Virus record (IMG/VR): IMGVR_UViG_3300006224_000012 | Span: 1-57,308 of that record | Strand: one strand, 5' to 3' | DNA length: 57,308 nucleotides | Source: a virus | Taxonomy: Duplodnaviria > Caudoviricetes | The notes under the pieces: model-generated | Databases searched by the model: none | What the model was told of the DNA's origin: nothing | What the model saw: the letters and a program-made list of their open reading frames with translations, nothing else | Shown here: positions 1-52,063 of the stretch, one piece after another | Numbering within the stretch: the stretch's first letter is position 1 | Layout: every line of letters starts with the position of its first letter | Program-made: the position numbers and the translations under genes

Positions 1-48
1 GTAGAGGACGAAAAGTTTACCTTGAGATTTGCCCGAGTTGAATCTTAA
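1..48 (+). CDS. 3' end of a plus-strand gene entering the window
   Basis: Frame 1 reads VEDEKFTLRFARVES-stop and is followed by a plus-strand terminator. Confidence 0.5.
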   Translation, partial: VEDEKFTLRFARVES

Positions 49-65
49 GGTATAACGAGATCATT

Positions 66-106
66 AGGGCCGGATTAGGGTAAAACTTAATCCGGCCCTT
101 TTCTTT
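66..106 (+). terminator. Intrinsic terminator
   Basis: 12-bp stem AGGGCCGGATTA/TAATCCGGCCCT followed by TTTCTTT. Confidence 0.8.
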
Positions 107-193
107 ACCCTAATTCAAAAGGGTAAATCGAAATCAAATTGGAACCCATACCCTTAACGTTAATGTAAAGATAATGTTGGGGTGGAGAATTAT

Positions 194-249
194 AGGACTA
201 CCTGTATTTTTCACTATATGAGGACTACCAAGATATTCACCTATATGAG
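194..249. repeat. Imperfect ~27-bp tandem duplication
   Basis: AGGACTACCtgtatttTTCACTATATGAG followed by AGGACTACCaagataTTCACCTATATGAG. Confidence 0.6.
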
Positions 250-251
250 TT

Positions 252-329
252 TTAAAGCGCCCTAGTCACAACGAATATGATTATCCCAAACACCACGATA
301 GCTATAATCTGTACTAAGAAGTCACCCAT
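252..329 (-). CDS. 25-aa single-TM micropeptide E
   Basis: MGDFLVQIIAIVVFGIIIFVVTRAL; ATG overlaps the upstream stop (TAATG); below the ORF-track cutoff. Confidence 0.65.
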   Translation of the reverse strand: MGDFLVQIIAIVVFGIIIFVVTRAL

Positions 330-409
330 TACCAGATAAGATTATAGATTCCCATCGCCAGGAGAAAATATAATACTGCTCCTATGCTTATTAATACTAC
401 GTCTTTCAT
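329..409 (-). CDS. 26-aa single-TM micropeptide D
   Basis: MKDVVLISIGAVLYFLLAMGIYNLIW; ATGA overlap with the upstream ORF; GGGGGTGA SD as used by the capsid and tail tube genes. Confidence 0.7.
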   Translation of the reverse strand: MKDVVLISIGAVLYFLLAMGIYNLIW

Positions 410-480
410 TTCACCCCCAAAAGTATTACGATTATTACCGCGACTTCCACAATTAGAACGGCTATCATAATCTTAATCAT
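406..480 (-). CDS. 24-aa single-TM micropeptide C
   Basis: MIKIMIAVLIVEVAVIIVILLGVK; AGGGGGG SD 6 nt upstream. Confidence 0.65.
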   Translation of the reverse strand: MIKIMIAVLIVEVAVIIVILLGVK

Positions 481-482
481 GG

Positions 483-506
483 AAAACCCCCCTATTTGGG
501 GGGTTT
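483..506 (-). promoter_or_regulatory. GC hairpin that sequesters the SD of micropeptide C (or a weak terminator)
   Basis: Minus strand AAACCCCCC-AAATA-GGGGGGTTTT, ending just upstream of the ATG at 480. Confidence 0.55.
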
Positions 507-572
507 AGTCGTTAGTATATATGCTATAGTAACTCCTATAAAGATTACTATAGTTGCAATTACTACGATTAT
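492..572 (-). CDS. 26-aa single-TM micropeptide B, putative AUA start
   Basis: (M)IVVIATIVIFIGVTIAYILTTKPPK; no ATG/GTG/TTG in frame; ATA overlaps the TAA of peptide A (ATAA). Confidence 0.45.
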   Translation of the reverse strand: MIVVIATIVIFIGVTIAYILTTKPPK

Positions 573-673
573 TTCTTGCGCGCTCGTCTTATCCTCTCAA
601 TCAAATCCATTGCTAGAATCACTACGAAAATAACCATAGCAATCACTAGAAGTACACTAATAAGTCCTTCCAT
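569..673 (-). CDS. 34-aa single-TM micropeptide A
   Basis: MEGLISVLLVIAMVIFVVILAMDLIERIRRARKK; TAATG overlap with the Ro60 stop; basic C-terminal tail. Confidence 0.75.
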   Translation of the reverse strand: MEGLISVLLVIAMVIFVVILAMDLIERIRRARKK

Positions 674-2058
674 TACAGTTCCACCTGTTCTATTCTTTTT
701 ACGAGAGCATCCTTTTCGCCGGTTTCTACTATTGGGATTAAGTCGAAGACTTTCTCACTAAATCCCGCAAGAGTTGCAACTTGCTTTTCGGGAAACTGTA
801 GGGTTCCGTGTCCTGCTAGGTCAAAACTCCAGATATAGGGATTTGCACCAGTACGTTTCTTATAGGCTTCCAGGTTGGCTTTAGGAGAACTCCATCCTAC
901 CCATGCCTGCATATCCGAGAGAATTACGATTCTATCATATTTCTCTTTGGCTTTGTCAAAAATCAGGTGGAAGTCTGTACCTCCGTGGTCAGCGCGTAGA
1001 CTTTCCGCGATACTAATAACAGAATCCGCAGGATTGTATTTAGGCCACGATACGCTTGTACCAAACTGCATAATGTCTGCGTAAGAAGCTTTCGCCATGA
1101 CCGCAGCAAATATACTTCCGATTTGAAGAGGCTTACCATACATACTCCCCGAGCAATCAAGTGCGATTAGTGTTTTCCCGCCAAGTTCAGGCATATTATC
1201 TACGGCAATATCCATTGCGTTAGAAACTGCATGACGAGTCTGGACAAAACTTACCTCACGGTAAGCAGTATCATACCGGAAAGGAAGCACCTTAGACTTC
1301 TTAATGGCTTCTTTGTTAGTTAGTTGAGCGTATACCTCTTTCATGATGGTTTTATCTACGCTTGCTTCTAGGTTCCGAAGATTTCTTAGAAGCGCGAAAT
1401 ACCCAAGTTTCCCCGAAAGAACCAATTCAGTCCAAGCTTCTTTTTTGGCTTTCGCGTCACTTCCAGCTTTGGTGATTTCTACTTCCCACGTATAAGGAGT
1501 CTCTAATTCCCCCTTAATGAGTTTTCCTAGCGTCACGCTTTTGGGATGCACTAGGTTAACTACATCCACCATTTTAAGAGAGTGGTTTTCTCCCCTATAC
1601 TTGGCAATCTGATAGTCGTTGAACTTCTCTAATGCGTCAGAAATCCCACGTTTTAGAGCGTTAGGAATAGGTTTACCATAAGTCCCCATCCAGTAGGCGA
1701 GAATCTCGCTTGCATCATCAGGCCGCTGAATAGTCTTAGAAATGGCAACTCTTAACCATTGCTCATTCTTAACATCATGGCACAATTCCGCGATAACTAC
1801 ATGGGTTACACTTCTCATACCCCATTCCCGAGCCATAATCGCAGCTTTGGCGACAAATTTCTTGTCTTTGATGCTGTGGACTAAGCTAACTAGACGGGAC
1901 TGAGCCTCATTTCCCTTTACATAGTAGGTATCCTTCAGGAAAGAGGTTAATAGGATTGAGGCTAATTCAAGTTTGTTAGATTCTTGATAAGCCTGCCCTC
2001 CAGCCTTGTTAATTGTAGTAGGCTGGACTTTCTGTTCAACTTTGCTGAACTTGCTCAC
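673..2058 (-). CDS. rsr: Ro60 / Rsr-like TROVE + vWA RNA-binding protein
   Basis: N-terminal INKAGGQAY; AKYR...DVVNLVHPK RNA-binding helix; TWE; ALLRNLRN; VLPFRY; vWA MIDAS DCSGSM, GGTDF, ILSDMQ; GTG start with AAGGAG SD. Confidence 0.93.
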   Translation of the reverse strand: MSKFSKVEQKVQPTTINKAGGQAYQESNKLELASILLTSFLKDTYYVKGNEAQSRLVSLVHSIKDKKFVAKAAIMAREWGMRSVTHVVIAELCHDVKNEQWLRVAISKTIQRPDDASEILAYWMGTYGKPIPNALKRGISDALEKFNDYQIAKYRGENHSLKMVDVVNLVHPKSVTLGKLIKGELETPYTWEVEITKAGSDAKAKKEAWTELVLSGKLGYFALLRNLRNLEASVDKTIMKEVYAQLTNKEAIKKSKVLPFRYDTAYREVSFVQTRHAVSNAMDIAVDNMPELGGKTLIALDCSGSMYGKPLQIGSIFAAVMAKASYADIMQFGTSVSWPKYNPADSVISIAESLRADHGGTDFHLIFDKAKEKYDRIVILSDMQAWVGWSSPKANLEAYKKRTGANPYIWSFDLAGHGTLQFPEKQVATLAGFSEKVFDLIPIVETGEKDALVKRIEQVEL

Positions 2059-2109
2059 TTCTACTCCTTTCTTCTTTTACTAAAACTCGACTCAGTAGAG
2101 ATTTATATT

Positions 2110-2225
2110 TGCTGAGAAAACCGGGGGAGTTAAGCTAATCTTGCGATTAGTTATTGGGTTTGAACCAATTAAATTTTTTAAAATAAAAATTATTTACCGA
2201 AGTAACTCCACTCCTCACTACAGCA
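2110..2225 (-). ncRNA. Y-RNA-like unit 1 (longest; keeps a T-arm-like hairpin)
   Basis: TGCTG-TAGTGA-GGAGTGGAG-TTACTTC-loop-CTCCCCC-GGTTT-TCTCAGCA; loop contains ATTGG-TTCAAAC-CCAAT and CTAATC-GCAA-GATTAG. Confidence 0.75.
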
Positions 2226-2239
2226 TCTTTTCTTAAATG

Positions 2240-2319
2240 GCCGAGATTCCTAGCTAGAGTTGTTTGTACACGCGATTCTGGTAAAGAAATATGTGAAGTA
2301 ACTCTAGCATCACTACGGC
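2240..2319 (-). ncRNA. Y-RNA-like unit 2
   Basis: GCCG-TAGTGA-TGCTAGAG-TTACTTC-loop-CTCTAGC-TAGGAA-TCTCGGC. Confidence 0.75.
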
Positions 2320-2334
2320 TGTTTTTACTAAAAT

Positions 2335-2423
2335 TAGCGAGGTATCCGAAAAGAGGGTTTGTAAGTCCTTTTGGGACTCTGGCAGATAAACCAATCTGAA
2401 GGAACTCTTTTCTCACTACGCTA
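2335..2423 (-). ncRNA. Y-RNA-like unit 3
   Basis: TAGCG-TAGTGA-GAAAAGAG-TTCCTTC-loop-CTCTTTTC-GGATA-CCTCGCTA. Confidence 0.75.
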
Positions 2424-2438
2424 TCCTCTTCTAAATAG

Positions 2439-2506
2439 TACCGAGACTAACTACCAGAGTTTATAACCATTATCCCAAATGAAGTAACTCTAGCATCACT
2501 ACGGTA
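2439..2506 (-). ncRNA. Y-RNA-like unit 4
   Basis: TACCG-TAGTGA-TGCTAGAG-TTACTTC-loop-CTCTGGTA-GTTAG-TCTCGGTA; two G-U wobbles fix the minus-strand orientation. Confidence 0.75.
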
Positions 2507-2524
2507 TTTGTTACTATCGGAATA

Positions 2525-2589
2525 ACCGAGAAAATTCTTGAGAGTATTTTTCCTTTGGTATATTGAAGTAACTCTCAAATCACTTCGGT
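2525..2589 (-). ncRNA. Y-RNA-like unit 5
   Basis: ACCG-AAGTGA-TTTGAGAG-TTACTTC-loop-CTCTCAAGA-ATTT-TCTCGGT. Confidence 0.72.
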
Positions 2590-2626
2590 CAACCTGGGAA
2601 CAGTCTACCACTTCGTCGTTTCCTTG

Positions 2627-2851
2627 TCAAGCGATTGGGCCAAATTCTTTTTGGATTTCTTCGACCCTCTTGGCTATACACTTGTACCATTGGTCCTTTA
2701 GGTACTGCGGGACGTTGTTACAGTATATAATGGGGGTCCAAGACTCGACCTCTAGGTATAAATCCCTTAAAAATACGTTCTCTCTAGCTACGTCATTAAA
2801 CCTCTCTTCTAGAGCCTTATACTCTGGAGTATTTTTAACGTCTATAGCCAA
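2627..2851 (-). CDS. Hypothetical protein (coiled-coil tendency)
   Basis: 74-aa ORF, TTG start, overlapping the upstream ORF in operon orientation. Confidence 0.6.
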   Translation of the reverse strand: MAIDVKNTPEYKALEERFNDVARENVFLRDLYLEVESWTPIIYCNNVPQYLKDQWYKCIAKRVEEIQKEFGPIA

Positions 2852-2994
2852 TGCCAGCTACAGGAAGTCCATCTGAAAAGGAATCTTTCCCGCCAATCTT
2901 TAGGTTTGGGAGTATATCGCCTTTCACGATGTTCATCAAACATACCACAAATCGGGCACTCATGCACATAAACAAAATACCAATGTTTCTTCAT
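2842..2994 (-). CDS. 50-aa putative Zn-binding protein
   Basis: MKKHWYFVYVHECPICGMFDEH...TSCSWHWL; CxxC and CxxH; ATGA overlap with the upstream ORF. Confidence 0.6.
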   Translation of the reverse strand: MKKHWYFVYVHECPICGMFDEHRERRYTPKPKDWRERFLFRWTSCSWHWL

Positions 2995-3119
2995 AAGTAC
3001 TGTATTCTCCTCATTTGCTCGATTTCTTTATTGATTCTGTAATTATTACGTGCTACACAAACCCACTCAAAAACCATAAAACCGATTGGAATTGCCAATA
3101 ACCACCACAATTTCTTCAT
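2991..3119 (-). CDS. 42-aa small membrane protein
   Basis: MKKLWWLLAIPIGFMVFEWVCVARNNYRINKEIEQMRRIQYL; AAGGAGAGG SD. Confidence 0.65.
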   Translation of the reverse strand: MKKLWWLLAIPIGFMVFEWVCVARNNYRINKEIEQMRRIQYL

Positions 3120-3139
3120 TCCTCTCCTTTCTGTTTTTA

Positions 3140-3225
3140 CTCCGGTGGCTGGACTTGAACCAACAATTTCCTTGTAAGGGCCTCCTAGTTAACAGCCAGG
3201 GGTTCTACCATTGAACTACACCGGA
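3140..3225 (-). tRNA. tRNA-Asn(GTT) with a 19-nt variable region; CCA not encoded
   Basis: Acceptor TCCGGTG/CACCGGA; D arm GTTC-AATGGTA-GAAC; anticodon arm CCTGG-CTGTTAA-CTAGG; T arm GTTGG-TTCAAGT-CCAGC; discriminator G. Confidence 0.88.
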
Positions 3226-3229
3226 TTAG

Positions 3230-3302
3230 TAGCAGGGATGGGAATTGAACCCACGTAAAATAGCTTATGAGACTATTTGGAGACACCAACACTCTCCCTG
3301 CA
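3230..3302 (-). tRNA. tRNA-Met-type (CAT) with atypical D arm and 1:72 mismatch
   Basis: Acceptor TGCAGGG/CCCTGCT; anticodon arm ATAGT-CTCATAA-GCTAT; T arm GTGGG-TTCAATT-CCCAT; discriminator A. Confidence 0.8.
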
Positions 3303-3308
3303 TCGAAA

Positions 3309-3455
3309 CTAGTATTTCTTCTTAAACATTACTTGTATCGGGCAGTTGAAACTTTGTCTTAAATAGAAGCATTTTTGACCCTCTTTCACCACTTTATTGT
3401 GTTCTTGACAAGATTTGCAGATTTTCCATTCAGAGGCATCAGATTTATCTTCCAT
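3309..3455 (-). CDS. 48-aa Cys-rich hypothetical protein
   Basis: Start re-called at MEDKSDAS behind an AGGAG SD; CxxC...C...C. Confidence 0.6.
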   Translation of the reverse strand: MEDKSDASEWKICKSCQEHNKVVKEGQKCFYLRQSFNCPIQVMFKKKY

Positions 3456-3463
3456 TTTTACTC

Positions 3464-3652
3464 CTAAAAGGTGATAGTAACGCTTTTGCCTTCTATTTTT
3501 AAGACCTTTTTGCGCCTTCTTTCCGCCCACCTAGTCTTTTCTGCCCCCATATAAGTGCTGCCATTGGCTACCATTTTGTCAATTAGCTCTTGTTCATAGG
3601 GTGTAAAAGGTTCAATTTGGTATTTACTCTTCATAGACATTCCTTTAGGCAT
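3464..3652 (-). CDS. Hypothetical protein
   Basis: 62-aa ORF abutting its neighbours. Confidence 0.55.
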   Translation of the reverse strand: MPKGMSMKSKYQIEPFTPYEQELIDKMVANGSTYMGAEKTRWAERRRKKVLKIEGKSVTITF

Positions 3653-3653
3653 T

Positions 3654-4196
3654 TTAGTAGTCCTTCCTTGCTAATATCGCGCCGAATGTCCCGGCTGGGA
3701 AGTTGTGGTAGTTATCCCACACAAATACATCATATCCAAACCTCTCAAAATCCTCTCTAAACCAACCAGAACGATGTTTTTGATAGGGATTGAGGTTCAT
3801 TTCCTTCCACTCTTTCATTTGATGTATCTCTGTGTCTATAAAATCTTCTGGAGTCCAGATAATTGCGAATTTTTTACAGAGCCTATCAATTTCTTGGAGT
3901 AAAAAGTGCCCCTCTTCCTTCTCTAGATGTTCAATTACGTCTAAAGCGAACACCATATCGAAGCTTTTATTCAAAAACATACTTAAATCCTGTATATCCC
4001 CCCAAACAGGCACCCATCCTGGCCCCTCTCTCCAAGTTTGTAGGTACTCCTCATTCATATCTAGGGCGATTTTACAAGGAATTAAGTCCATTAAGCCTCT
4101 TAAACCCCCCGCATGAGGGCCATTATAGCTTCCAGCACCTAAATTAAGTAGTGTAAAGCACCCTTCTAGGTTAAAATTAAGGTTTATTTCATCCAT
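3654..4196 (-). CDS. Class I SAM-dependent methyltransferase
   Basis: Motif I LLNLGAG; ALD; WGDI; SFDMVFALDVIEHL. Confidence 0.85.
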   Translation of the reverse strand: MDEINLNFNLEGCFTLLNLGAGSYNGPHAGGLRGLMDLIPCKIALDMNEEYLQTWREGPGWVPVWGDIQDLSMFLNKSFDMVFALDVIEHLEKEEGHFLLQEIDRLCKKFAIIWTPEDFIDTEIHQMKEWKEMNLNPYQKHRSGWFREDFERFGYDVFVWDNYHNFPAGTFGAILARKDY

Positions 4197-4197
4197 T

Positions 4198-4422
4198 TTA
4201 CCACCAAAGAGGCAATTGCCCGTTATGTGCTTCCCTATAATACTCTTTAAGGGCCTCTAAAAGAGGATAAACCTTCTCTTTTTTGATAAAAATCGAATAT
4301 GGGACTTTTCCATGAATAGTTTCGTTCTCTATTGTAAGCCCCAAGGAGTCATTATTCATAATAGAGAGTCTTAGCTTGTTTCCTGGGCCTGTTCCCTCAA
4401 TTTCTGCGATTAATTTCCCCAT
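4198..4422 (-). CDS. Hypothetical protein
   Basis: Start re-called at MGKLIAEIEG (TAATG overlap with the upstream stop). Confidence 0.6.
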   Translation of the reverse strand: MGKLIAEIEGTGPGNKLRLSIMNNDSLGLTIENETIHGKVPYSIFIKKEKVYPLLEALKEYYREAHNGQLPLWW

Positions 4423-4670
4423 TATTTCTTCCCTTTTTTGGTGTAGGAGTCTTTTGTCCTCATGGGAACGTCTGTATACACTTGTCCCCTTCCAAAACGA
4501 AACGTCCACAATGGACAACCGATATCTGGGCAATCTTTTATCAAACTAACTTGATATCCCATACATTCGGTGCATTGTAGACGTATTGCTTCGCTTCTGG
4601 TTACTTTACTCCGCTCATTTTTCGGTTTTGTTGGTTCACTAACCGCTCTAGGGTCTATCCAGCGTACCAT
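4422..4670 (-). CDS. Small Cys4 (Zn-binding) phage protein
   Basis: AIRLQCTECMG...CPDIGCPLWTFRFG; start re-called at MVRWIDP behind a GAGAGGGG SD. Confidence 0.65.
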   Translation of the reverse strand: MVRWIDPRAVSEPTKPKNERSKVTRSEAIRLQCTECMGYQVSLIKDCPDIGCPLWTFRFGRGQVYTDVPMRTKDSYTKKGKK

Positions 4671-4822
4671 TTGGCCCCTCTCTTTGGAGATTTCTCTACG
4701 GGACCATCTTAGCAGTTCCAGGGCCACAATACAAGTCCTTTTTTAGCGCCCTGAACCAGTCCTAGTTACAGAATCAGTACACAGAACAGACTACGGAACA
4801 AACTACGATAATGAGGAGTAAG

Positions 4823-5617
4823 TTACTTGTCTTTTCTAAGTTTTCGGACCCACCGAACCAAAAAACACGTTTTTTTGGGTTTTCCTACTATATCAACAAT
4901 AGACCAGGCTTCTTTTAGGTTAATAATATCCCAAATGTCATAAGGAATCGTACAATACCCATCTTTTCCCCAATATGGCGACCAGGAATTTTTTGCAATA
5001 AATCCAATAGAATCATATCCTACTATAGCGATTGCATGACCTCCTAATTGCTTTCCTATTGGCATAGTTACAATTCCATCTTCTCCGGTCTTTTCAAATG
5101 ATTCCCAGACCATAATTCCCGCCAAAACAGGGCCAGTTTGAAAAATAGCTTGCTTCATTGAGTTTTTATCTGTAGAAACTGTTGCATAAGATAAGATTTT
5201 GTAAATTTGGGCATTTTCATAGCCCCCCTCATACATTTTTCCTTGTGGGGGATATCTTCCCTCATATGGGAGATAAAATTCCTCACAAACCCCTGTATTT
5301 TTAAGAACACTTAAAATAGCTCGTAAATATGTTCCTTTTTCTTCTGGTATCCCATCAATTTTCTTTGCTTCTCCATATAAGAATTGTTCTGATAAATCAA
5401 TTGGTTTTTCAAATTCTTTTGTGTTATAAAGTTCCGCAACAGCATTTCCAGTAAAAGCTGCACAATCCGAGTCTGCTTGATATTTTACTGGTGTAGCCCA
5501 TTGTAACCATTGATAACATTCATCTGGTGTAGGAATCCGTAAAGGCTTTACCATTGCCTTTAGAACATAATCCCGGCTATCTGGCGGAGAAGGTATTAAT
5601 CCTTTACGGAAGTCCAT
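4823..5617 (-). CDS. Papain-like C1 family cysteine peptidase
   Basis: Q...C (YQADSDCAAF); DLSEQFLY; GGHAIAIVGY; KNSW..YWGKDGY. Confidence 0.9.
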   Translation of the reverse strand: MDFRKGLIPSPPDSRDYVLKAMVKPLRIPTPDECYQWLQWATPVKYQADSDCAAFTGNAVAELYNTKEFEKPIDLSEQFLYGEAKKIDGIPEEKGTYLRAILSVLKNTGVCEEFYLPYEGRYPPQGKMYEGGYENAQIYKILSYATVSTDKNSMKQAIFQTGPVLAGIMVWESFEKTGEDGIVTMPIGKQLGGHAIAIVGYDSIGFIAKNSWSPYWGKDGYCTIPYDIWDIINLKEAWSIVDIVGKPKKTCFLVRWVRKLRKDK

Positions 5618-6014
5618 AGCCTGTCTCCCTTGTTGCTGGTTGTGTAAACATAATATTGTTATCTAACACAAATTCCCATTCTGTTCCGTCAGAGACTATT
5701 ACGACTATATCCATACAATATTGTACTGTATCGGGGATAATAGCGTCCTGGTCATCTTTTTTAATCCAAATTTTTCCTTGTCCATTTGCGGCATCTACAG
5801 TAATAAACTGGTCTGGATTATCTACGGAATTAAAGGCTATTACTGCTAAATCATCAGCTAAAGCATCGCTTGCTTTAACTGTAACATATATAGCATCAAT
5901 ATCGTTGGTTAAATTAGGGTGTGTATCATCATCCCATGTCATTGTATATTTTAGTCTGTGGTCACGCCCTTTTACTAGCTTTCCACCAGTTGGTTTTTTG
6001 ATTGTTAAAGGCAT
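5604..6014 (-). CDS. Putative structural beta-sandwich protein (BppU N-terminal-like)
   Basis: 136 aa, beta-rich; pattern KGRD...NLT...G.GKIWI...D....YCMDIVV; directly after the fibre gene. Confidence 0.45.
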   Translation of the reverse strand: MPLTIKKPTGGKLVKGRDHRLKYTMTWDDDTHPNLTNDIDAIYVTVKASDALADDLAVIAFNSVDNPDQFITVDAANGQGKIWIKKDDQDAIIPDTVQYCMDIVVIVSDGTEWEFVLDNNIMFTQPATRETGYGLP

Positions 6015-6015: not shown

Positions 6016-9000
6016 TTATCCTCCTCCCTCTATTTTTCCGAGTAGTTCTTGCCAGGAAGTTTCTCCTTTGAGTTCTTCCCAATATGTTTTACCCACTAAT
6101 TCTTCCCACACTATTTCTCCTGTTAATGTCTCCCACTCTATCTTTCCTAGTAATTCTTCCCACTCTACATCACCAAGAATCAGTTTTAATTCTTTCCAGG
6201 CCCATACTCTAGGTGGAATAAGTTTAGCATGTGATGCTGTAAGTATTCCAACACCAAATGAAGTAAGTATAAGAGGCTCAATTAATTTAGTATTTATTGC
6301 CGTTAATACTATACTCTCTACTATAGCATCGGCACCATATCCTGGTTTTATTAACTTAGTATGCTGGGCTGTTAGAGTTGGGACTTCGATATTTACTGTG
6401 GTAATAATTTCAGGAATCACTAATTCAGCAAGGGCTGTTAAGGCTGTAGATAGAATCCCTACAGAAATTGTTGGTACAACAATTCTAGCGTTGCTTGCTG
6501 TTATTGGTACTGCTTCTATCTCTCCAACAAGAACTATTAAAATTTCAGGAGCTAGTAATTTTGCTGCTGATGCAGTAATCGGAATCGCATCTACCGATTC
6601 AGAAATTACTGAGGAAACGTTTATTTCAGGAGAAACAATTCTGGCTTGAGATAATAATAAACAAGGAGCCACACAATAACTTTGTCCTGTTACTGTAGGT
6701 GGAATTATCTTACTGTTAGTGCAAGTTAATATAATCATTTCGCGGCTAATTGATATAATTAATGCAGGAATGAGTATATTAGTATGTTCTGCGGTTAATG
6801 GTATAGCTGTAATTCTTGCTGCTCCATTTACTGTTGGAGCAATTATCTTGGCTTGAGAAGCAGTTATTGTCGTTGCAGACACCTTTCCTGTCCCTGACAG
6901 ACTAGAAACGTGTATACCATGACAGCTTGCTGTTAATGGGTTGCAACTTATTATAGAGACAATAACTAAATTGGGGCTAAGTAGCTTAGTTTGAGAACAA
7001 GTAAGTGATTCTGAGTAAATAATGGCATCAAACATTGAAGAAGCATATACGGATGGTGGCAGGAGCTTAGTTTGACTACAAGTTAGGATTGGAATACTTG
7101 CATAACTTATAGTTACTATCGAGGGTATAATAATCTTTGTATTAGATGCTGTTATTGCAGTTGCAGTTACCGACGTAGAAACTTTAGGAGTTAATAGCTT
7201 TGCTGAACTGAGGGTTAATGTGGGAATTGCCGTGAGACTAACACCGCTTATAACGGGAGGAATAATGCGGGTACTAGAGGCAGTTATTGTAACGGAATCT
7301 AGGGCGCTAGAAACTACGATTTCGGGCGCTATTATCCGTGCCTGACTCAAGGTTAATGGATTTACTGAAACATTTGCATTCTGAACGCTTTCTGCACTTG
7401 GGGCCAATAGCAGCGCATGGGAGCAGGTTAATGGTTCGGCAGATATGACGGAAACTATGACGAGACTAGGAACGAGAATCTTGGCGTTAATAGCCGTTAG
7501 AGTAGGTACTACAATAGTGGCTGTAGTAACTACTTCAGGAACAAGGATTTTAGTGTTTTTAGCTGTTAATGGTTCAGCATTTAAGATTAAATCTGCAATT
7601 AGGTTTGGAGTCAGTAATTTAGTGGCCGATGCGGTCAAAGCTGTAGCATTTAGTACTTCAGAATCTAGTAAACTGATAAATGGTTCTAATAATTTAGCCT
7701 GTGAACAGGTTAATAATGGTATAGAAATAACACTTATTATAACTAAGCTTGGTGCTAATATCTTTGTTGCAGAAGCAGTTAATGGTACAGCTTCTACTCT
7801 TGTAAATCCAGTTATAGTGGGAGCTAGAATTTTTGCAGCCGAACAAGTAAGAGGTACGCTCTCTATTCTAGCGGAACCAGTAATGGTAGGAGCAAGTATT
7901 TTAGTAGCACTTCCAGTTAAAGATACTGCATTTATAGCGATTCTTGTAGTAATAACTGGGGAAAGAATTTTAGTAGCAGAAGCAGTAATAGGTACTGCTA
8001 CTATTCTAGTTTCTCCTGTTACCGTTGGTGGTACTAGTTTAGCTGCTGTACAAGTTAATAAAGCTGCTGGAATACTTGTTATGCTATATACAGTTGGAGA
8101 AAGCAGTTTAACTGCGGAAGCGGATAAAGTTACCTGTAAATCTATATAATTGCTGGTATTTATATCCAGAGCAACAATTTGGGCATGGCTTGCTGTTAGA
8201 GGTTCAGCATTGACTATACTGCTCCAAGTTATCTCTGGAGTTAGTAGTTGAGCGTTAGAACAAGTTAATACAGTAGCATCAATGCTTATTGATTCAACTT
8301 CTGTAATTATAATGTCAGGAGAAAGTACTTGTGTAGAAGAGGCAGTAGCCCAAGGATTTTTTAAGCAGGCTATTACAATTTCATTAGATAACGACCACTC
8401 TCCATCTGAGAACATTCTAGCGCGATAGTAGTAAATATTTCCGTGGGTTGTAGTAGTATCAATAAACTCATAGTTTGTACCATCCCACGAAGAAGCGGAT
8501 AGAATCTCATAGTCCCCACTCTCTCCCGTTTTTCTTTCAATATAAATGAAGGTTAAAGCTGGAAGTATAATTTGAACATGAGAGCCAGTCAATGCTGGTG
8601 CATTAATAAGCGAATCTCCAGCTTGAGTTAAGATTGGGGCTAAAAGTTGGGTTTGAGAACAAGTTAAAATAGGAATAACAAGAACTGACTCTATGATAAG
8701 CGATGGACTAAATAACTGAGCCTGTGAAGCAGTTAAAACGGCACTATCGACTCTTACTAGAGTGCTTACACTAGGAGAAAGCAGTTTACAGGCTTGAGCA
8801 GTAATTATGCTACTTTCAATCCAAGTTGAGGTAACGATTTCGGGAGATAGTAGTTTTGCTGCTGAACAAGTGATTGGAACAGCGTTAATTGGTGCTTCAA
8901 ACTGAATTGTGGGTTCTAATAACTTGGCATGTTGGGCTGTTAATGGAATACTAGTAATATAAGCTGTTCCATAGACATTTGGAGCTAAAATCTTCGTATT

Positions 9001-12000
9001 TTGGGCTGTAAGAGGAATATGGACAATATTAGCTAAAGTATAGACTATTGGAGCTAAAATCTTCGCCGCAGAGCAAGTTATTGGTTCAGCAGAAACCCTG
9101 GCTATAGAATTAACAGTAGGAGCTAGTATTTTGGTATTTTGAGCAGTTAAAGGTATAGCAGCTATATAAGCTCTTCCAGACACTTCTGGAATGAGTATTT
9201 TTGTTTGTTGTGCAGTTAAAATTGCTCCAGCAACCGTAGTAGACCTAATTATTTCTGGCGCTAGTATTTTAGTCTGTTGTGCTGTTAAAGGTATTGCATC
9301 TACTGTAGTAGTAGCCTCAGTAATTATTGATGGGGCTAATATCTTTATGGCTGAACAAGTAATGGGGATAGCACTTACTTGGGTTGCACTAGTAATAGTA
9401 GGTGCTAATATTTTAGCCGCGCTACAAGTAATTGGTATTGCATTTACTTGAGTAGAAGTAGCTATAGCAGGAGCAAGAACAAAAGTATTTTCATATTCTG
9501 CTGTTAAAAATACTGCCTTTGTACTGCTATTATCCCTAGAACGGAAACCAATATATTTGCTGCTTCCAGTTACTCCATTCTCTTTCCAAATAACACATAG
9601 AGAATTTCCATAGGTCCAACCACTTCTGTTAACAATTTCTTGTATGATTGTTTTAATATCAGGAGAGATATGAGTACTTCCAACAGAAAATGATGCAAAA
9701 CTCCACTCTACACTAGCAGAAGTAGTAGAAGCAGTTTTAGGTTCATGAGTAGTTACAACCCAAGCTCCAGGATTATCTGCGGCTTCACCATAAAGAATTG
9801 TTGGGTATGGAAAAGATGGAAAAGATGCTCCGTAGTAATTTCCTTCTATTGTTGCTGCTAAAATAGTTCTATCTTTAGCAATTGTGACATTCTGGAATCT
9901 CCAACCGCCAGGAAGTGAGTTTCCACTTTGGTCTTTACCGGCATAAATACCACCAGAGTTATCAACAAATGCCCCTGCAACTGTATATGTAGCATCATCA
10001 GTACTAGCAATAATTGTAGCCATATAAATGTTAGGAGAAATTACTCTAGCAGTTACTTGACAAGTTCCACTTACTACTGGTGAAAGTACTTTTGTTGCAC
10101 TACAAGTTAAGACACTAGAACTAATACTATTAGCTATACTTGGAGTAAGAATTTTACAGGCTGAAGCAGTAAGAGGAACAGCAGTAACTTGAGTTCTAGT
10201 CTGTATTGTAGGAGCTAATAATTGTGCCGCTGAACAAGTAATAGGAACAACTGTAGAAGCACTAGCAATACTAGGAACTAAAATTTTAGTTTGTTGCGCG
10301 GTTAAAATTGGAATTGCTATAGCTACTGCTATAGAAGGAGTGAGAATCTTAGTTTGTTGGGCAGTTAAAATAGAAGCTGTACTAGCGACTGATATAGATG
10401 GAGTTAATATTTTTGCTGCTGAACAAGTAAGGGGTTCAGCATTTATAATAGTAGGGCCATCTTCAGTAGTTACAGTAGGAGTATAAACTTCTATAGTTTG
10501 ACTAGCTGCGTAATCTATAGAAAGTCGTAGACAGTTACTTGAAGACCCATCATAAGAATACCAGTATCTTATTGCGTCACCAGAAGAGTTATTATTTTCT
10601 TCTATTATAGCTAGATTATTACCTTTGACCCAATCTTCTCGGTCAATAATCTCTTGAATAGGAGCTTTAATATTAGGGCTGTCATACCAAGTACCAGAAG
10701 TCCAATCTGGGATATCATCCCAGTCGGTATAAGCTGTAGTCTTTGTTCTTGCTAAATAGTTTGATTGGTTACTATATGTTGCTGGAGAAGAATTATCTTC
10801 TCCATAGATTCTGGCGTTACATATATTTCCTCCAAGTGTGCTATTAGCCATACCCCTAAGAATCGCAGACTCAATAAGAGCATTTTTAGGAATGTTGATA
10901 CCTCTAAATAATGCACCCGAAGAATATCTCTCTGTAGAAGTTGAACCAAATATAAAGTTAACAGTTGTCATTGACCAAACACTTACTCGGTCAACACAAT
11001 CATCAGAGCTTTGAGATACTAAAATAGGCCCAATACTATTAGAGTTTAATAGTGGATTTGCATTAATTTGGCAAATACTTCCTACTACTGGTGTGAGTAG
11101 TTTAGTCGCGCTGCAAGTTAAAGGTTCAGCATTTACAGTAGCGTTACTACTAGTAGATAAAATAAAGCTATTAGTAGAACTCCATAAATTCCAGTCACCA
11201 CTTGCACGTTTAGCTCTTACTCGCCAATAATAAGTATCATTAGTAAGAGCATCTGCTTCGGGTACTGTATAAGTAATTTCATGCCCAGAGGTAAAAGGAT
11301 GAGTATCAACTCCATCATGATAAAACTCTGTTGTGTCTACATCTGAAGTACGGTCTATAAGAGATTCAGTTGCATTATTACTAGTGACTCTAAATTCAAT
11401 AGCATACACATTAACTTGAGCAGCATCATTAATATTTTTCCAAAATGTAACTACTAATTCATGTAGTTTTGTCCAAGTCCAACTAGTAAAATTAGTTACA
11501 TCATAATAGGCACTCCATCCTGTTGCTCCAGGACCATTTAATGTTCCAGTACCAATTTCTACACCATATGGGGTCTGTAACATAAATCCTAAATTATCAG
11601 TAGCAGCAGTATTAATATAGACCCTTATTTCTACTTTATCTATTGTTAAACTAGAAGATTCTGGAGCATCTGTATGAAATGACAAACCACCAATAGTAAT
11701 CGCATTTAAAGTTTTACTACCATATGTAGTGGTATATCCATAATTTGATATGTTAGTACCTGTAGAAGATGCATTTGTCCAGGCAAGTTGTGGGTCAGTA
11801 TAAAGTGAGCCAAAGTAATATGTGTTGCGTACTGGTGTATTATTAAAAGTATTTGCAGTATCTATTTGTATTTCATATTCAAGTTCAGCACCATCAGTAT
11901 CAGTACCAGTAAAATAGAAAGTAGGAGTAGTATCAGTTATTGTTCCTGTTGGATTAGCTCCTAGTACTACTGTTTGGAAATTTGGAGCTAGTATTTTTGC

Positions 12001-13449
12001 GGCAGAAGCAGTTATAGGAATAGTGTCTACTTGTCTTGGTAGACTAGGATTAAGTATCTTCGCCGCAGAGCAAGTAAGAGGAACAGCATTTGCTGTAGAA
12101 AGAGTAACCGTAAGACTTCTAGTGGTACTCCAGTTATCTGCATAACTTTTATTATATCCTCTAGCTCTGGCTCTCCAATAGTAAGTTCCCGATGCAAGAG
12201 TAGGGGTATAGGTTATTTCATGGCCGCTAGTAAAAGGATGAGTGTCAGAACCATCATGATACCACTCTGTATCTCCACCAGTAGAAGTTTCATCTATTAA
12301 TGGGCTTGATTCAACATATACTCTAAATACAACATCCCCGGTTTGACTAGTCCAACTACCAGAGGCTTTTATCCAAGGGGTTCCTCCAGAATATGTTCCT
12401 ACTCCTCTAGAACCAACTGTTACATAATTAGTAGTATCTCTAGCTCCTGAACGTTCTACTGTTATATAGTAAACTGTAGAAGCCGAAAGTTCTGGATAAT
12501 CTGGCAATCTAATTTGATTAAAATAATATGTATCTGCTAAAGCAAGAGTAGAAGGATTTATAGTTACTGTAGCAACAATAGTTCCAGAGCAAGAACCACT
12601 TCTAATATATACATAGTGTGTGTCAGTACAACTAGTCGTACTTCGTTTTAGAGTTAAATCAATTTGTTTTACTCTACCAGCATTAGTAGTTGTAAATGAC
12701 TGGCCTATGGCTTCGTATGTTCCTGACCCACCATAAACATATAAAGTGCTTGTATCTACAGCCGCTTCATTCCAAATACCGGCTCCAGCACCGCCTGAAT
12801 CAAAAGTATTAACAGTATCAAATTGAATTTCATATTCTACATCAGCGGCATCTGGCTCAGTTCCAGTCATATAGAAAACTGGGCTATTAGATTCTCCCGC
12901 ATCTGGAGGAGAACTAGCTCCAATACTTATTGCTGCTGATGATGTATAAGTGCCGGTAAGTTCTATTGCATCAATTCTCCAATAAGAACCATCAGCACCA
13001 CCAGATTTACTATGCCCAAACCTAATTCTAATTACTGCATTATCCCACTCCTCTTTAGTTTTTGTATACGAGGCAGTTCCTACAAATTCAATAGGGCCAG
13101 AATTTGTCCATCCAGTAGCGGGATTAGTAACTAATGTTGTTTCAGAACACAGATTAGAAGATAGATTTGATTGATACATAGTAGCATAAAGGGTTTCAGT
13201 ATCATCGTTACGGCCTATTAAATTATAGCGAACATTAATACTTAATGAATTCATGTATAAGAAGTCATCAGGCATATTAGTTATCGGTATATAGAAATAC
13301 GAATTGGCATTTGCTACACTTTGAACATAATTTCCATCAGCACTAGAAATACCTTCATCTATATCTGTATAGGCACCACTAGCAAGAACGGCGGTATTTT
13401 GTAGTGTATTATTGGGATACAGGGTTCCTAATGTAACTGGATTAGCCAT
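6016..13449 (-). CDS. Giant (2477 aa) repeat-built virion fibre/appendage protein
   Basis: Start re-called at MANPVTLG (TAATG overlap, GGCGGTGA SD); many ~25-aa PLT(C/A)S..K(I/L)L.P repeats; FN3-like and lectin-like domains. Confidence 0.8.
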   Translation of the reverse strand: MANPVTLGTLYPNNTLQNTAVLASGAYTDIDEGISSADGNYVQSVANANSYFYIPITNMPDDFLYMNSLSINVRYNLIGRNDDTETLYATMYQSNLSSNLCSETTLVTNPATGWTNSGPIEFVGTASYTKTKEEWDNAVIRIRFGHSKSGGADGSYWRIDAIELTGTYTSSAAISIGASSPPDAGESNSPVFYMTGTEPDAADVEYEIQFDTVNTFDSGGAGAGIWNEAAVDTSTLYVYGGSGTYEAIGQSFTTTNAGRVKQIDLTLKRSTTSCTDTHYVYIRSGSCSGTIVATVTINPSTLALADTYYFNQIRLPDYPELSASTVYYITVERSGARDTTNYVTVGSRGVGTYSGGTPWIKASGSWTSQTGDVVFRVYVESSPLIDETSTGGDTEWYHDGSDTHPFTSGHEITYTPTLASGTYYWRARARGYNKSYADNWSTTRSLTVTLSTANAVPLTCSAAKILNPSLPRQVDTIPITASAAKILAPNFQTVVLGANPTGTITDTTPTFYFTGTDTDGAELEYEIQIDTANTFNNTPVRNTYYFGSLYTDPQLAWTNASSTGTNISNYGYTTTYGSKTLNAITIGGLSFHTDAPESSSLTIDKVEIRVYINTAATDNLGFMLQTPYGVEIGTGTLNGPGATGWSAYYDVTNFTSWTWTKLHELVVTFWKNINDAAQVNVYAIEFRVTSNNATESLIDRTSDVDTTEFYHDGVDTHPFTSGHEITYTVPEADALTNDTYYWRVRAKRASGDWNLWSSTNSFILSTSSNATVNAEPLTCSATKLLTPVVGSICQINANPLLNSNSIGPILVSQSSDDCVDRVSVWSMTTVNFIFGSTSTERYSSGALFRGINIPKNALIESAILRGMANSTLGGNICNARIYGEDNSSPATYSNQSNYLARTKTTAYTDWDDIPDWTSGTWYDSPNIKAPIQEIIDREDWVKGNNLAIIEENNNSSGDAIRYWYSYDGSSSNCLRLSIDYAASQTIEVYTPTVTTEDGPTIINAEPLTCSAAKILTPSISVASTASILTAQQTKILTPSIAVAIAIPILTAQQTKILVPSIASASTVVPITCSAAQLLAPTIQTRTQVTAVPLTASACKILTPSIANSISSSVLTCSATKVLSPVVSGTCQVTARVISPNIYMATIIASTDDATYTVAGAFVDNSGGIYAGKDQSGNSLPGGWRFQNVTIAKDRTILAATIEGNYYGASFPSFPYPTILYGEAADNPGAWVVTTHEPKTASTTSASVEWSFASFSVGSTHISPDIKTIIQEIVNRSGWTYGNSLCVIWKENGVTGSSKYIGFRSRDNSSTKAVFLTAEYENTFVLAPAIATSTQVNAIPITCSAAKILAPTITSATQVSAIPITCSAIKILAPSIITEATTTVDAIPLTAQQTKILAPEIIRSTTVAGAILTAQQTKILIPEVSGRAYIAAIPLTAQNTKILAPTVNSIARVSAEPITCSAAKILAPIVYTLANIVHIPLTAQNTKILAPNVYGTAYITSIPLTAQHAKLLEPTIQFEAPINAVPITCSAAKLLSPEIVTSTWIESSIITAQACKLLSPSVSTLVRVDSAVLTASQAQLFSPSLIIESVLVIPILTCSQTQLLAPILTQAGDSLINAPALTGSHVQIILPALTFIYIERKTGESGDYEILSASSWDGTNYEFIDTTTTHGNIYYYRARMFSDGEWSLSNEIVIACLKNPWATASSTQVLSPDIIITEVESISIDATVLTCSNAQLLTPEITWSSIVNAEPLTASHAQIVALDINTSNYIDLQVTLSASAVKLLSPTVYSITSIPAALLTCTAAKLVPPTVTGETRIVAVPITASATKILSPVITTRIAINAVSLTGSATKILAPTITGSARIESVPLTCSAAKILAPTITGFTRVEAVPLTASATKILAPSLVIISVISIPLLTCSQAKLLEPFISLLDSEVLNATALTASATKLLTPNLIADLILNAEPLTAKNTKILVPEVVTTATIVVPTLTAINAKILVPSLVIVSVISAEPLTCSHALLLAPSAESVQNANVSVNPLTLSQARIIAPEIVVSSALDSVTITASSTRIIPPVISGVSLTAIPTLTLSSAKLLTPKVSTSVTATAITASNTKIIIPSIVTISYASIPILTCSQTKLLPPSVYASSMFDAIIYSESLTCSQTKLLSPNLVIVSIISCNPLTASCHGIHVSSLSGTGKVSATTITASQAKIIAPTVNGAARITAIPLTAEHTNILIPALIISISREMIILTCTNSKIIPPTVTGQSYCVAPCLLLSQARIVSPEINVSSVISESVDAIPITASAAKLLAPEILIVLVGEIEAVPITASNARIVVPTISVGILSTALTALAELVIPEIITTVNIEVPTLTAQHTKLIKPGYGADAIVESIVLTAINTKLIEPLILTSFGVGILTASHAKLIPPRVWAWKELKLILGDVEWEELLGKIEWETLTGEIVWEELVGKTYWEELKGETSWQELLGKIEGGG
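6028..6205 (-). repeat. Nonapeptide W-E-E-L-x-G repeat, 6 copies, at the fibre C-terminus
   Basis: WKELKLILGDVE WEELLGKIE WETLTGEIV WEELVGKTY WEELKGETS WQELLGKIE. Confidence 0.8.
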
Positions 13450-14696
13450 TATATCACCGCCATTCCAATAACAAAGTCGTTTCCTAATTGATAAGCATAA
13501 AAACCTGGAATTATTTGTATTCCAACATCTATTGTTGGTGATATAATAGTGGCATGAGAGCAAGTTAGTGGAATAGAATCAATTTGCCATAGACTAGTTA
13601 TTTCAGGAGCAAGCAGAATTGTACTAGAACAAACCAGAATTTCTGCTTGAATAAATGCTGTTCCTGTAATTTCTGGAGAATAAACTTGGGTAGACGAGCA
13701 AATTATAATAGCAGATTCTATATAAGTTAAACTTCCAGCCCCAGGCGTTAGAAGTTGAGTGTATTGTGCTGTTAATGGGTTAGTAGTACTAGCTGCACTA
13801 ATATTTGGAGTTAAAACTTTAGTATTTTGCGCTGTTAATGGTAGATGTTCTAACCCAAGTGATAGTGCGGGAGAAAGAATTTTAGTATATTGCGCTGTTA
13901 AAGGAGGAATGTCCCTAGCTTGAGATATTCCTGGTTCAAGTATCTTAGTTTGTTGTGCGGTTAGACAAATATCTAATGATATAAGCTTATCTCCACTAGC
14001 ATTTTCAGTCGAAACTACTGGCTCAAGTATTTTAGTATATTGCGCGGTTAAAATTGAGGAATCAACACCAGTAGATATTGTAGGGTCTAATATTTTAGTT
14101 GCCGAACAAGTAATAGTTTCAGTACAGGTTACTGTTGCAGAAATTACCGAAGTACATGTTACTTCAGGAACAAGAATTTTAGTATACTGACAAGTTAAAG
14201 GAGGAGCAGGGATAGCGTAAGTAACTTCTACTTGTAAGTAGTCTAGTGACCAAGTTCTTGAAGTAGCGGTGTTACCTGTATAGACTCTGGCTCGTACTCT
14301 AAGTCCAGAATCGCCTGTAGTATTTAATTGAGCAACAGTTGGAAAACCAGAAGTTATGGTTTGAGTAGCAGTATAGTCTGTGTTAAGAGTAGGAGTAGAA
14401 ACAGTAGCTTCTGTTCCTACTGCTGTAGTACCTGTATGAAAAAGTTGGATTCCCCAACCAGCACCAGTAATAGAGCTAGTTCCTATTCGACAAACCCCAC
14501 TTACTACAATCCTTTGAATTGTTGCATCAGTAGGAATAGCAAAATTAAGGTTAGTCCAATAGGAGTTCTGGTTTTGGTTACGGGTGGTGGAGGTTAAAGT
14601 AGCATAGTTTGTATCATCAGTATAAACATTACCGGGGTTGGTAAAAACCATCCCCGTAGAGGAGTAATTACTAACTAATTTAGTAACAGTAGCCAT
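13449..14696 (-). CDS. Repeat-containing virion fibre protein (415 aa)
   Basis: N-terminal beta domain, then about 10 LTAQ.TKIL.P repeats. Confidence 0.75.
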   Translation of the reverse strand: MATVTKLVSNYSSTGMVFTNPGNVYTDDTNYATLTSTTRNQNQNSYWTNLNFAIPTDATIQRIVVSGVCRIGTSSITGAGWGIQLFHTGTTAVGTEATVSTPTLNTDYTATQTITSGFPTVAQLNTTGDSGLRVRARVYTGNTATSRTWSLDYLQVEVTYAIPAPPLTCQYTKILVPEVTCTSVISATVTCTETITCSATKILDPTISTGVDSSILTAQYTKILEPVVSTENASGDKLISLDICLTAQQTKILEPGISQARDIPPLTAQYTKILSPALSLGLEHLPLTAQNTKVLTPNISAASTTNPLTAQYTQLLTPGAGSLTYIESAIIICSSTQVYSPEITGTAFIQAEILVCSSTILLAPEITSLWQIDSIPLTCSHATIISPTIDVGIQIIPGFYAYQLGNDFVIGMAVI

Positions 14697-22099: not shown

Positions 22100-22675
22100 C
22101 TAAACGTCTAACTCTAGCATTTTTCCTGTTACATCATGTCTTACACCGTCAATCATAACATATACTTTATTTTCTTTCATGCTTTTAATGAGAATTACTT
22201 CTTTTGGTTTAGGGGGTTCTTGGGGTATGATTTTGGGTTCCTCTTTTAATGGCAAAGTTTCTACTTCTGCTGAAGGCACTTCAGGAGGGATTTCAGGCGC
22301 ACACTCTTTATTACCATTTAGCTTTAAATTGCTTTCTTGTTTAATTACACTTAATTTTGCGCCAGCAGAAGTAGCTACCGCATGAATCATTTTACTTCCT
22401 GCCCCAATTGTTAACCCATAAAAGATAGTGCCGAATCTTTCCATTAACGGTACTCCGGTATCTAACAGGGTTTGATAATTCAATGCAATAGCTACTCCTA
22501 GTCCAGCAGCAATAGAAAGGGCAAACCATACTTCTCCTGGCGTTTTTTGGACCCACCCCCAAGGTAGTTTATAGTATAGTGTTTTAAGGAACTGAATAGC
22601 AATTACTATACCTGAAGATATAGCTGCAATAGTCCCTGCATCAGTTAGTATATTTGCCCAATCCATTGTATCCAT
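22100..22675 (-). CDS. Holin-like membrane protein
   Basis: About 3 TM segments; GLTIGAGSKMIH; near the endolysin. Confidence 0.6.
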   Translation of the reverse strand: MDTMDWANILTDAGTIAAISSGIVIAIQFLKTLYYKLPWGWVQKTPGEVWFALSIAAGLGVAIALNYQTLLDTGVPLMERFGTIFYGLTIGAGSKMIHAVATSAGAKLSVIKQESNLKLNGNKECAPEIPPEVPSAEVETLPLKEEPKIIPQEPPKPKEVILIKSMKENKVYVMIDGVRHDVTGKMLELDV

Positions 22676-51856: not shown

Positions 51857-52063
51857 TTAATCGTGCGGTCCATCCGGGTTATTAATTGCATCATAAGGAT
51901 GTTCCCAATCAATCTTATTTACGTGTATTCCCCAGGCATCAGCCTTCGCGCTATCTGAAATCTCTCCTTTAGATTTAATCTCACTAATAGCAGCATTAAA
52001 CGTAGAGGCATTACCTCCAGTTACTTTTGCTGGTTTATCTGGTTTAAAACTCCCTCTAGCCAT
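51857..52063 (-). CDS. Hypothetical 68-aa head-module protein
   Basis: GGGGGTGA SD; first gene after a putative late promoter. Confidence 0.65.
   Translation of the reverse strand: MARGSFKPDKPAKVTGGNASTFNAAISEIKSKGEISDSAKADAWGIHVNKIDWEHPYDAINNPDGPHD

Follow-up and report, generated by a model that had tools for sequence, protein, structure and literature searches.

Positions 252 to 673 on the minus strand of the IMG/VR virus record IMGVR_UViG_3300006224_000012, directly downstream of a Ro60 gene, code for hydrophobic single-helix micropeptides and are not an empty spacer. The window referred to throughout is the complete record of this tailed phage, which is 57,308 nucleotides (nt) long and has a completeness estimate of 49%. 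The stretch probably holds four certain genes, named p1, p3, p4 and p5, and a doubtful one, p2, which would encode single-pass membrane micropeptides and form a set of coupled accessory genes at the end of the Ro60 transcription unit. The features of this unit, in the direction of reading, are the following.

673..2058, minus strand: Ro60/TROVE RNA-binding protein gene, 461 amino acids (aa), GTG start, Shine-Dalgarno (SD) sequence aaaggag; the gene upstream of the chain.
569..673, minus strand: p1, 34 aa, ATG start; a transmembrane (TM) helix followed by a basic tail (DLIERIRRARKK).
492..572, minus strand: p2, a hydrophobic open frame of 26 codons plus TAG; first codon ATA, without a canonical start and without an SD.
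484..506, minus strand: hairpin AAACCCCCC-AAATA-GGGGGGTTT followed by a T-rich tail, from a terminator scan.
406..480, minus strand: p3, 24 aa, ATG start; single TM helix.
329..409, minus strand: p4, 26 aa, ATG start; single TM helix.
252..329, minus strand: p5, 25 aa, ATG start; single TM helix; the final gene of the minus-strand unit.

The first-pass annotation of this DNA had reported five open reading frames (ORFs) here, and a second reading of the minus strand from 673 to 252 gave the same five frames, peptide sequences and junctions. As ORFs, p1, p3, p4 and p5 stand, each with an ATG and an entry in the mechanical ORF list. p2 does not: it is absent from the list, and its frame, open from 'EDKTSAQE' onward, contains no ATG, GTG or TTG. 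The chain is entered through a TAATG junction, in which the ATG of p1 shares one base with the Ro60 stop, and continues through ATAA at p1/p2 (p2 beginning at the ATA within it), an 11-nt gap at p2/p3 (491..481), an ATGA overlap at p3/p4 and a TAATG overlap at p4/p5. Stop/start overlaps of the kind found in translationally coupled pairs are present at Ro60/p1, p3/p4 and p4/p5, and not at p1/p2 (ATAA). According to PMC6728339, overlapping stop/start pairs are usually strictly coupled, as were 13 of 14 tested pairs from archaea and E. coli. Eight of the 42 junctions between the larger genes of the phage are short overlaps, five of 1 nt and three of 4 nt, so the micro-ORF junctions are in the phage's own style. 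The best 17-residue Kyte-Doolittle windows of p1 to p5 are 3.52, 3.11, 3.39, 2.50 and 3.25, respectively. Basic residues are C-terminal in p1 (+5), p2, p3 and p5. With 19-35% identity among them and no invariant column, the five peptides give no evident sign of being paralogues. ORFs on the plus strand of the region (e.g. 496-633, with a TTG start) were rejected; they run opposite to all genes of the window and have no SD.

Hydrophobic micro-ORFs arise easily in AT-rich intergenic DNA, according to PMC11188072, and the chain might on this ground be taken for a chance product of an AT-rich spacer. The region is somewhat T-rich (33% T), and the shuffles used to assess chance were therefore made dinucleotide-preserving. 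An ORF was counted when it began with ATG, was 20-60 aa long and contained a 17-residue Kyte-Doolittle window of at least 2.5. At least one such ORF was present in 35 of 5,000 shuffles of 252-673 and at least two in none, against four observed. When start codons were disregarded, five hydrophobic stop-free 17-mers were observed; 102 of 3,000 shuffles gave one and none gave more. Both strands of the whole window contain 238 ATG ORFs of 20-45 aa, 11 of them this hydrophobic; p1, p3, p4 and p5 account for four of the 11, and the other seven lie inside long ORFs. In 422-nt windows moved along the record, at least three hydrophobic segments (three or four) were found only where the window overlapped 87-808. 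A chance origin is scarcely credible.

Base composition by codon position points in the same direction for the four ATG ORFs p1, p3, p4 and p5, to which the values refer: T makes up 0.56-0.72 of second codon positions, compared with 0.27 in the genes of the phage, and G makes up 0.30-0.40 of first positions. Strong SD motifs (AAGGAG, GGGGGTGA) precede most genes of the phage. An SD-like AGGTGG lies 7 nt upstream of the p1 ATG and a GGGGGG run 6 nt upstream of that of p3; p4 has the SD GGGGGTGA, its 'ttgggggtgaaATG' agreeing in motif and spacing with 'aagggggtgaaATG' of the 68-aa gene at 51857-52063, and p5 has a weak match only. The motifs of p1, p3 and p4 resemble those of the phage's large genes.

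Five hydrophobic segments that follow each other in rotating frames, without homologues, with a lost start in p2 and in a part of the genome common to no relative, could also be what frameshifts have left of a gene for a polytopic membrane protein, or proto-genes of recent origin that are translated but have no role. However, in four of the segments the ATG is placed right on the stop before it or 11 nt further on, and three carry SD motifs, an arrangement that decay by frameshifts would not produce. Further, there are no loops between the segments, the basic residues are all C-terminal and do not alternate, and the sequence is stable in runs dated 2017 to 2025. A chain without function is judged highly improbable.

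Four DNA runs from three studies (2017-2020) contain the stretch 1-2100 with 1.00 of the words sampled from it, and other runs dated up to 2025 contain it in part; the ATAA junction is thus not a one-off assembly slip. Contigs of run X7 over 66-372 and 501-856 have no listed difference within 252-673. A 151-nt contig of run X10 (depth 2) matches 527-640 with the single listed change 558 A>T, which is ATT>ATA in the p2 frame and synonymous. A further 37 letters of this contig were left loose by the aligner, and 30 of them were translated by hand on the minus strand. The variant reads E-G-F-I-T-V-M-L-A-I where p1 has E-G-L-I-S-V-L-L-V-I, with the frame kept and no stop; 20 of the 30 bases are identical to p1, and the differences comprise three synonymous codons and four conservative replacements (L/F, S/T, L/M, V/A). 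Such changes are of the kind that a translated membrane helix would tolerate, and the evidence is thin.

Over 527-677 the identity of the same X10 contig drops from about 98% (527-640) to about 67% (641-670) inside p1, and the N-terminal half of p1 appears, from this sharp drop, to be a mosaic or hypervariable patch. A second X10 contig, over the Ro60 gene (851-1001), has one difference.

The first-pass annotation had described the p2/p3 junction as a gap with an SD. The 11-nt gap is there, and the 'SD' is the 3' arm of a hairpin (506-484) which had been overlooked and which splits the chain into Ro60-p1-p2 and p3-p4-p5. The hairpin has a folding energy of -16.3 kcal/mol, equalled by one of 200 shuffles. 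It is picked up by the rule of an intrinsic-terminator scan, but only four T follow the G run, three of them able to pair with AAA, and further coupled ORFs (p3-p5) lie downstream. The 5' arm, the loop and the opening G of the 3' arm are made up of the final four sense codons of p2 (K-P-P-K) together with its TAG, and the 3' arm is the sole SD-like sequence for p3. Read on the plus strand, the element (487-503) is also terminator-like (-17.6 kcal/mol).

The ATAA of the p1/p2 junction is one G>A change away from ATGA, which would let p1 end in TGA and p2 begin with ATG; junctions of the ATGA type occur three times elsewhere in the window. p2 is accordingly read here as what may formerly have been a normal link in the chain, its start by now crippled or very weak. 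It has also to be considered that p1 and p2 are one membrane protein of about 60 aa with two helices (TM - RRARKK loop - TM), joined by a -1 shift or split by a recent mutation, which would reduce the chain to four genes. Relative to p1, p2 is in the -1 frame; it opens right at the p1 stop without a start codon or SD and is as hydrophobic as the other peptides, and a basic loop between two helices is a common layout of membrane hairpins. However, there is no slippery heptamer at CGC AAG AAA TAA, and the junction is identical in independent assemblies, which makes a sequencing indel unlikely. As ATAA is one transition from an overlap that the phage uses elsewhere, p2 is more simply explained as a formerly separate coupled gene, and the union of p1 and p2 in a single gene is distinctly unlikely.

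The predicted mRNA fold of 240-700 (minus strand) is modest (z = -2.6). In it the 5' half of p1 is paired with the p1/p2 junction in a long helix, which could bear on the initiation of p2.

For a chain of four certain coupled genes and a doubtful p2, the following course of expression is proposed. Ribosomes would pass by termination and reinitiation from Ro60 to p1 (TAATG), from p3 to p4 (ATGA) and from p4 to p5 (TAATG). With no ribosome on p2, the hairpin could terminate transcription and mask the SD of p3; a ribosome reading p2 into the 5' arm would open the stem and finish 11 nt before the p3 ATG. Given the ATA start of p2, the p1/p2 link would now be weak, and p3-p5 would probably be made below the level of p1. 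In the host cytoplasmic membrane the peptides are expected to sit with an outer N-terminus and an inner C-terminus, because the basic residues of p1, p2, p3 and p5 are C-terminal. Their chemistry suggests accessory ('moron'-type) factors that would act on host membrane proteins or on the bilayer, by binding or perturbing them, in such roles as exclusion, host takeover or counter-defence, and that would be parts neither of the virion nor of a lysis cassette.

A role in a lysis cassette or as holin finds no support: no PHROG or Pfam holin is matched, and the chain does not adjoin the endolysin gene. Candidate lysis genes are located about 20 kb away, namely a multi-TM protein of 99 aa (22679-22978) and a protein of 191 aa with two TM helices (22100-22675). 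Their position beside the peptidoglycan-binding gene (20004-20885), next to which an N-anchored coiled-coil protein is also found, makes a lysis role of the chain unlikely.

An extended version of the proposed course has Ro60 translation driving p1, a ribosome on p2 both stopping termination and unmasking the p3 SD, and p3-p5 being reinitiated, so that helices in fixed ratio form a hetero-oligomeric membrane device. Acting as a pore or as an anchor of the Ro60-RNA particle, this device would be switched by the translation activity of the Ro60 message. Such a metered device is a long shot.

The peptides could instead be type I toxin-like, with one or more of p1-p5 depolarising the membrane under the restraint of an antisense RNA or of mRNA structure, and serving host shut-off, abortive timing or maintenance of the element. 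Their length of 24-34 aa, single TM helix and short polar ends, and the basic tail of p1, fit what PMC12648545 describes. The Kyte-Doolittle values (2.5-3.5) are those of small hydrophobic peptides with one TM helix, the SD of p3 is sequestered in the stem, and the terminator-like hairpin of the plus strand could be where an antisense RNA over p3-p5 stops. Known type I genes stand alone, with a promoter of their own and a long 5' untranslated region; here, however, p1, p4 and p5 overlap the upstream stop and p3 begins 11 nt after the p2 stop. A consensus scan, which leaves other promoter types possible, found no sigma-70-like promoter on the plus strand below position 1574. Directly 3' of the p5 stop lies a tandem 27-nt direct repeat (194-247; two copies, 74% alike, AGGACTACC...TCAC.TATATG). 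It has no further occurrence in the window and is therefore not a recurring phage promoter, and a T7-like promoter reading was dropped for the same reason. No toxin family of PHROG or Pfam is matched, and the record looks virulent-type, with no lysogeny genes seen across the 57 kb. As there is neither a stand-alone gene nor a promoter-like site for an antisense RNA, a classical type I locus is unlikely. The toxin-like reading in general is also an unlikely one, while the peptides may act on the bilayer in a toxin-like way.

The upstream gene is assigned to Ro60 by Pfam TROVE (1.2e-19, 71.3 bits against a cut-off of 23) and by PHROG 850 'RNA-binding protein' (9.9e-49). The vWA_Ro60 match reaches 22.7 bits, below its cut-off of 27.7, and with this sub-cut-off score the combination of a TROVE and a vWA-like domain was counted as present. 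The protein is 42-48% identical over its full length to six metagenomic homologues, and its C-terminus aligns with the ends of its relatives. Five copies of a small hairpin motif (YGWAGTGA - 7-9 nt - GAGTTMCTTCR) lie at 2199-2589 (minus strand) between the tRNA genes and Ro60, with GAAGUGA pairing with UUACUUC and a copy spacing of about 83-103 nt. Four of the copies were reported as a family by a repeat search and the fifth (~2222-2199) was read by eye. Rfam at E up to 1 over 1-5000 gave only the two tRNAs and no family at the array; its hairpins are probably Y-RNA-like partners of Ro60. A promoter-like sequence upstream of the array and Ro60 (2602..2630, minus strand; TTGACA-17-TAGACT, 10/12 with TG, a consensus match only) is a possible start of the transcription unit that carries the chain.

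The first-pass annotation had described the chain as coupled to the Ro60 gene and had taken five RNAs upstream and five peptides downstream as possibly, but not necessarily, a coincidence. In one scheme of a functional tie, the basic cytoplasmic tail of p1 would tether or regulate the Ro60-RNA particle, with coupling fixing the ratio of the partners. The TAATG at the Ro60/p1 boundary implies that the two are translated together in a single unit, and a 14-nt segment of p1 (613-626) agrees with the array motif in all positions but one (13 of 14). Against this, a scan of the 1.5 kb downstream of Ro60 for ORFs of 20-70 aa found hydrophobic ones in none of 24 other loci, namely 22 metagenomic or IMG/VR loci (20 distinct contigs) and the Streptomyces phages BRock and Alone3; two loci that end inside the gene (L017 and L018) were left out. 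The relatives of Ro60 from which the 22 loci were drawn reach 46% identity at most. The genes after Ro in BRock and Alone3 are tRNAs. The paper on a Thermus phage Ro60 (PMC12135203) places Y-like RNAs upstream, and the word 'membrane' does not occur in it. The parity of five and five has nothing behind it beyond the count. A prediction of a Ro60-p1 complex (10-row alignment, without controls) scored 0.00 and carries no weight either way. Nothing except adjacency is in favour of a partnership, which is very unlikely; the neighbourhood appears to be a shared operon, not a conserved functional pairing, and the association to be incidental on present evidence.

The match of p1 613-626 is to the 5' half of the array motif (2304-2317, 2490-2503) and is in the same sense, not complementary; the segment is therefore not an antisense pairing site. 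The similarity may have arisen by chance or may point to a shared origin.

Searches for relatives of the peptides gave little. p1, scanned with HMMER among 1.84 billion representatives, found itself only. PHROG and Pfam searches gave as best value E = 0.014 for p4 (an unnamed PHROG) and E = 0.39 for p1 (a 37-residue 'membrane protein' PHROG), and Pfam at E up to 1 gave nothing for any of the five. Atlas scores for the peptides did not exceed 0.80, a value at chance level. IMG/VR did not contain an exact 23-mer from p1, and the DNA of 1-3400 had no match among 50,697 phage records. For the methyltransferase (3654-4196), the peptidase (4823-5617) and the 2515-aa ORF, no relatives were found in IMG/VR. 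Relatives of the capsid protein are present in 29 loci with up to 86% aa identity, and the two long records among them (G001 and G002) align only to 22.5-57.3 kb of the window. Ro60 was found in none of five capsid-relative records, and the two long ones have no comparable cluster of hydrophobic micro-ORFs; these records are all fragments and hence silent on the absence of either. The left 22 kb of the window form a variable accessory region. A keyword search of the open-access literature found no description of micropeptide chains beside phage Ro60, which is no proof that none is in print.

Several of these results weigh against the interpretation as coupled membrane micropeptide genes. None of p1-p5 has a homologue in PHROG or Pfam, p1 has none among the protein representatives, p2 has neither a start codon nor an SD, and the SD of p3 is locked in the -16.3 kcal/mol stem. 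A codon log-likelihood ratio trained on the phage lies above zero in all of the proposed frames (2.5-6.8) and is lower in the two alternative frames, but the test is weak, any open frame being biased upward, and the values are low compared with in-frame pieces of real genes (mean 12.7, 5th percentile 1.3). There is no RNA run among the sequencing runs in which the stretch 1-2100 occurs. As no related phage covers the region, conservation comes down to one contig of depth 2 and one single-nucleotide change, and the proposed function is drawn from peptide chemistry only.

The remainder of the window has the tailed-phage marks of a terminase, a portal, an HK97-type head and a tape measure, and all of its sizeable ORFs and genes are on the minus strand. 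PHROG assigns a siphovirus-type late region with a large terminase (53671-56181), a portal, a major head protein (50195-51115), a minor tail protein and a tape measure. A TerD-like protein is also among the accessory genes. From the tRNAs at the low-coordinate end toward position 1 follow a gap of about 570 nt with the repeated hairpin motif, the Ro60 gene and the micro-ORF chain. Other features of the window are the following.

37202-46306, minus strand: tape measure (PHROG), 3034 aa, with several hydrophobic segments.
20004-20885, minus strand: peptidoglycan-binding 'endolysin'-type protein, the sole such gene in the window.
6016-13563, minus strand: ORF of 2515 aa without a family match.
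4823-5617, minus strand: papain-family peptidase, accessory gene.
3654-4196, minus strand: methyltransferase, accessory gene.
3140-3302: tRNA-Asn and tRNA-Met, at the low-coordinate end of the window.

The cultured phages nearest by capsid are Bacillus phage BCD7 (47%) and Streptomyces phages of the BRock type (~44%). The phage appears to be an uncultured, siphovirus-like one from freshwater or wetland, the runs in which its DNA occurs being labelled freshwater and wetland metagenomes, and the record looks like a virulent-type structural and accessory region. A 42-aa gene with one TM helix (2994-3119) and a 49-aa Cys-rich gene (2845-2994), both on the minus strand, form a coupled pair between the tRNAs and the RNA array. 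The stop of the former and the start of the latter overlap by 1 nt, and the Cys-rich protein has a weak RecR zinc-finger match (E 0.038). At 66-99 (plus strand) a 14-bp hairpin is followed by TTTTCTTT (-28.4 kcal/mol, a stability equalled in none of 200 shuffles); it is oriented as a plus-strand terminator, so a convergent transcription unit probably lies beyond the left end of the record.

Genes of 24-26 codons escape standard annotation, and among the five peptides only p1 is in public protein collections, where the exact protein was called on five contigs; p2-p5 are absent from the public protein collection. The chain is a clean case in which statistics without homology reveal an annotation 'gap' as densely coding. 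Its approximately 420 nt provide a compact test bed for termination-reinitiation cascades and for a hairpin that possibly couples translation to termination and to SD access. If the peptides prove membrane-active, they would be orphan effectors from an uncultured freshwater lineage that has Bacillus phage BCD7 and Streptomyces phage BRock as distant relatives. For the biology of Ro60 the result is mainly negative, in that the membrane peptides are outside the conserved phage Ro60 module.

Phage Ro60 modules are known from Thermus phage phiLo (PMC12135203) and from BRock and Alone3, and they share with the present locus a Ro60/TROVE gene with Y-like RNAs or tRNAs directly upstream. BRock and Alone3 also have a tRNA-Asn upstream of Ro and, nearby, a peptidase and a TerD-like 'stress protein', as in the window at 3140-6014. 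The Ro proteins are about 28% identical and the capsids about 44%, and synteny is at the level of the module. Unlike the present locus, none of these phage modules has membrane micropeptides after Ro60, where tRNA genes or unrelated ORFs are found. The Ro60 part of the locus is ordinary for phages.

In layout, the chain resembles the tiny genes VII and IX of the Ff filamentous phages, whose translation is coupled to that of the preceding gene V, the gene of a protein that binds nucleic acid. The products of VII and IX, like the peptides described here, are small hydrophobic single-helix integral membrane proteins, of 33 and 32 aa (PMC10175506). They are virion tip proteins of a filamentous ssDNA phage, whereas the present phage is tailed and there is no sequence similarity. 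Small bacterial membrane regulators and subunits such as MgrB, CydX and UgtS also consist of a single helix of about 30-50 aa, are often operon-terminal and bind a larger membrane protein (PMC12648545). They sit beside the membrane complex or kinase that they serve, whereas the gene upstream of the chain encodes Ro60, a soluble RNA-binding protein. Nor does the chain resemble the KdpF/CydX/AcrZ type, which is encoded with a membrane complex and shows family homology: none of the peptides has a Pfam match.

The type I toxins Ibs, Ldr, TisB, Fst and BsrG are alike in being shorter than 60 aa (IbsC having only 19), with one TM helix and short polar ends, and some are prophage-borne (PMC12648545). 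The chain differs in being operon-internal and coupled to upstream genes, in that the consensus scan gave neither an own promoter nor a promoter-like site for an antisense RNA, and in showing no sequence similarity to them. Small membrane proteins encoded by phages were reportedly described by Fremin and colleagues in 2022 among the small-gene families of phage genomes. They have in common with p1-p5 that their short ORFs fall under annotation cut-offs, often have a predicted TM helix and lie in accessory regions of tailed phages; they differ in that here four or five genes of 24-34 aa are packed head to tail with stop/start overlaps, none of them with a detectable family. This large and mostly uncharacterised class of small phage membrane proteins is the closest kind. 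The chain itself is best taken as a real and statistically solid group of orphan genes for membrane micropeptides that had escaped annotation, with an unusual junction that the hairpin would gate.

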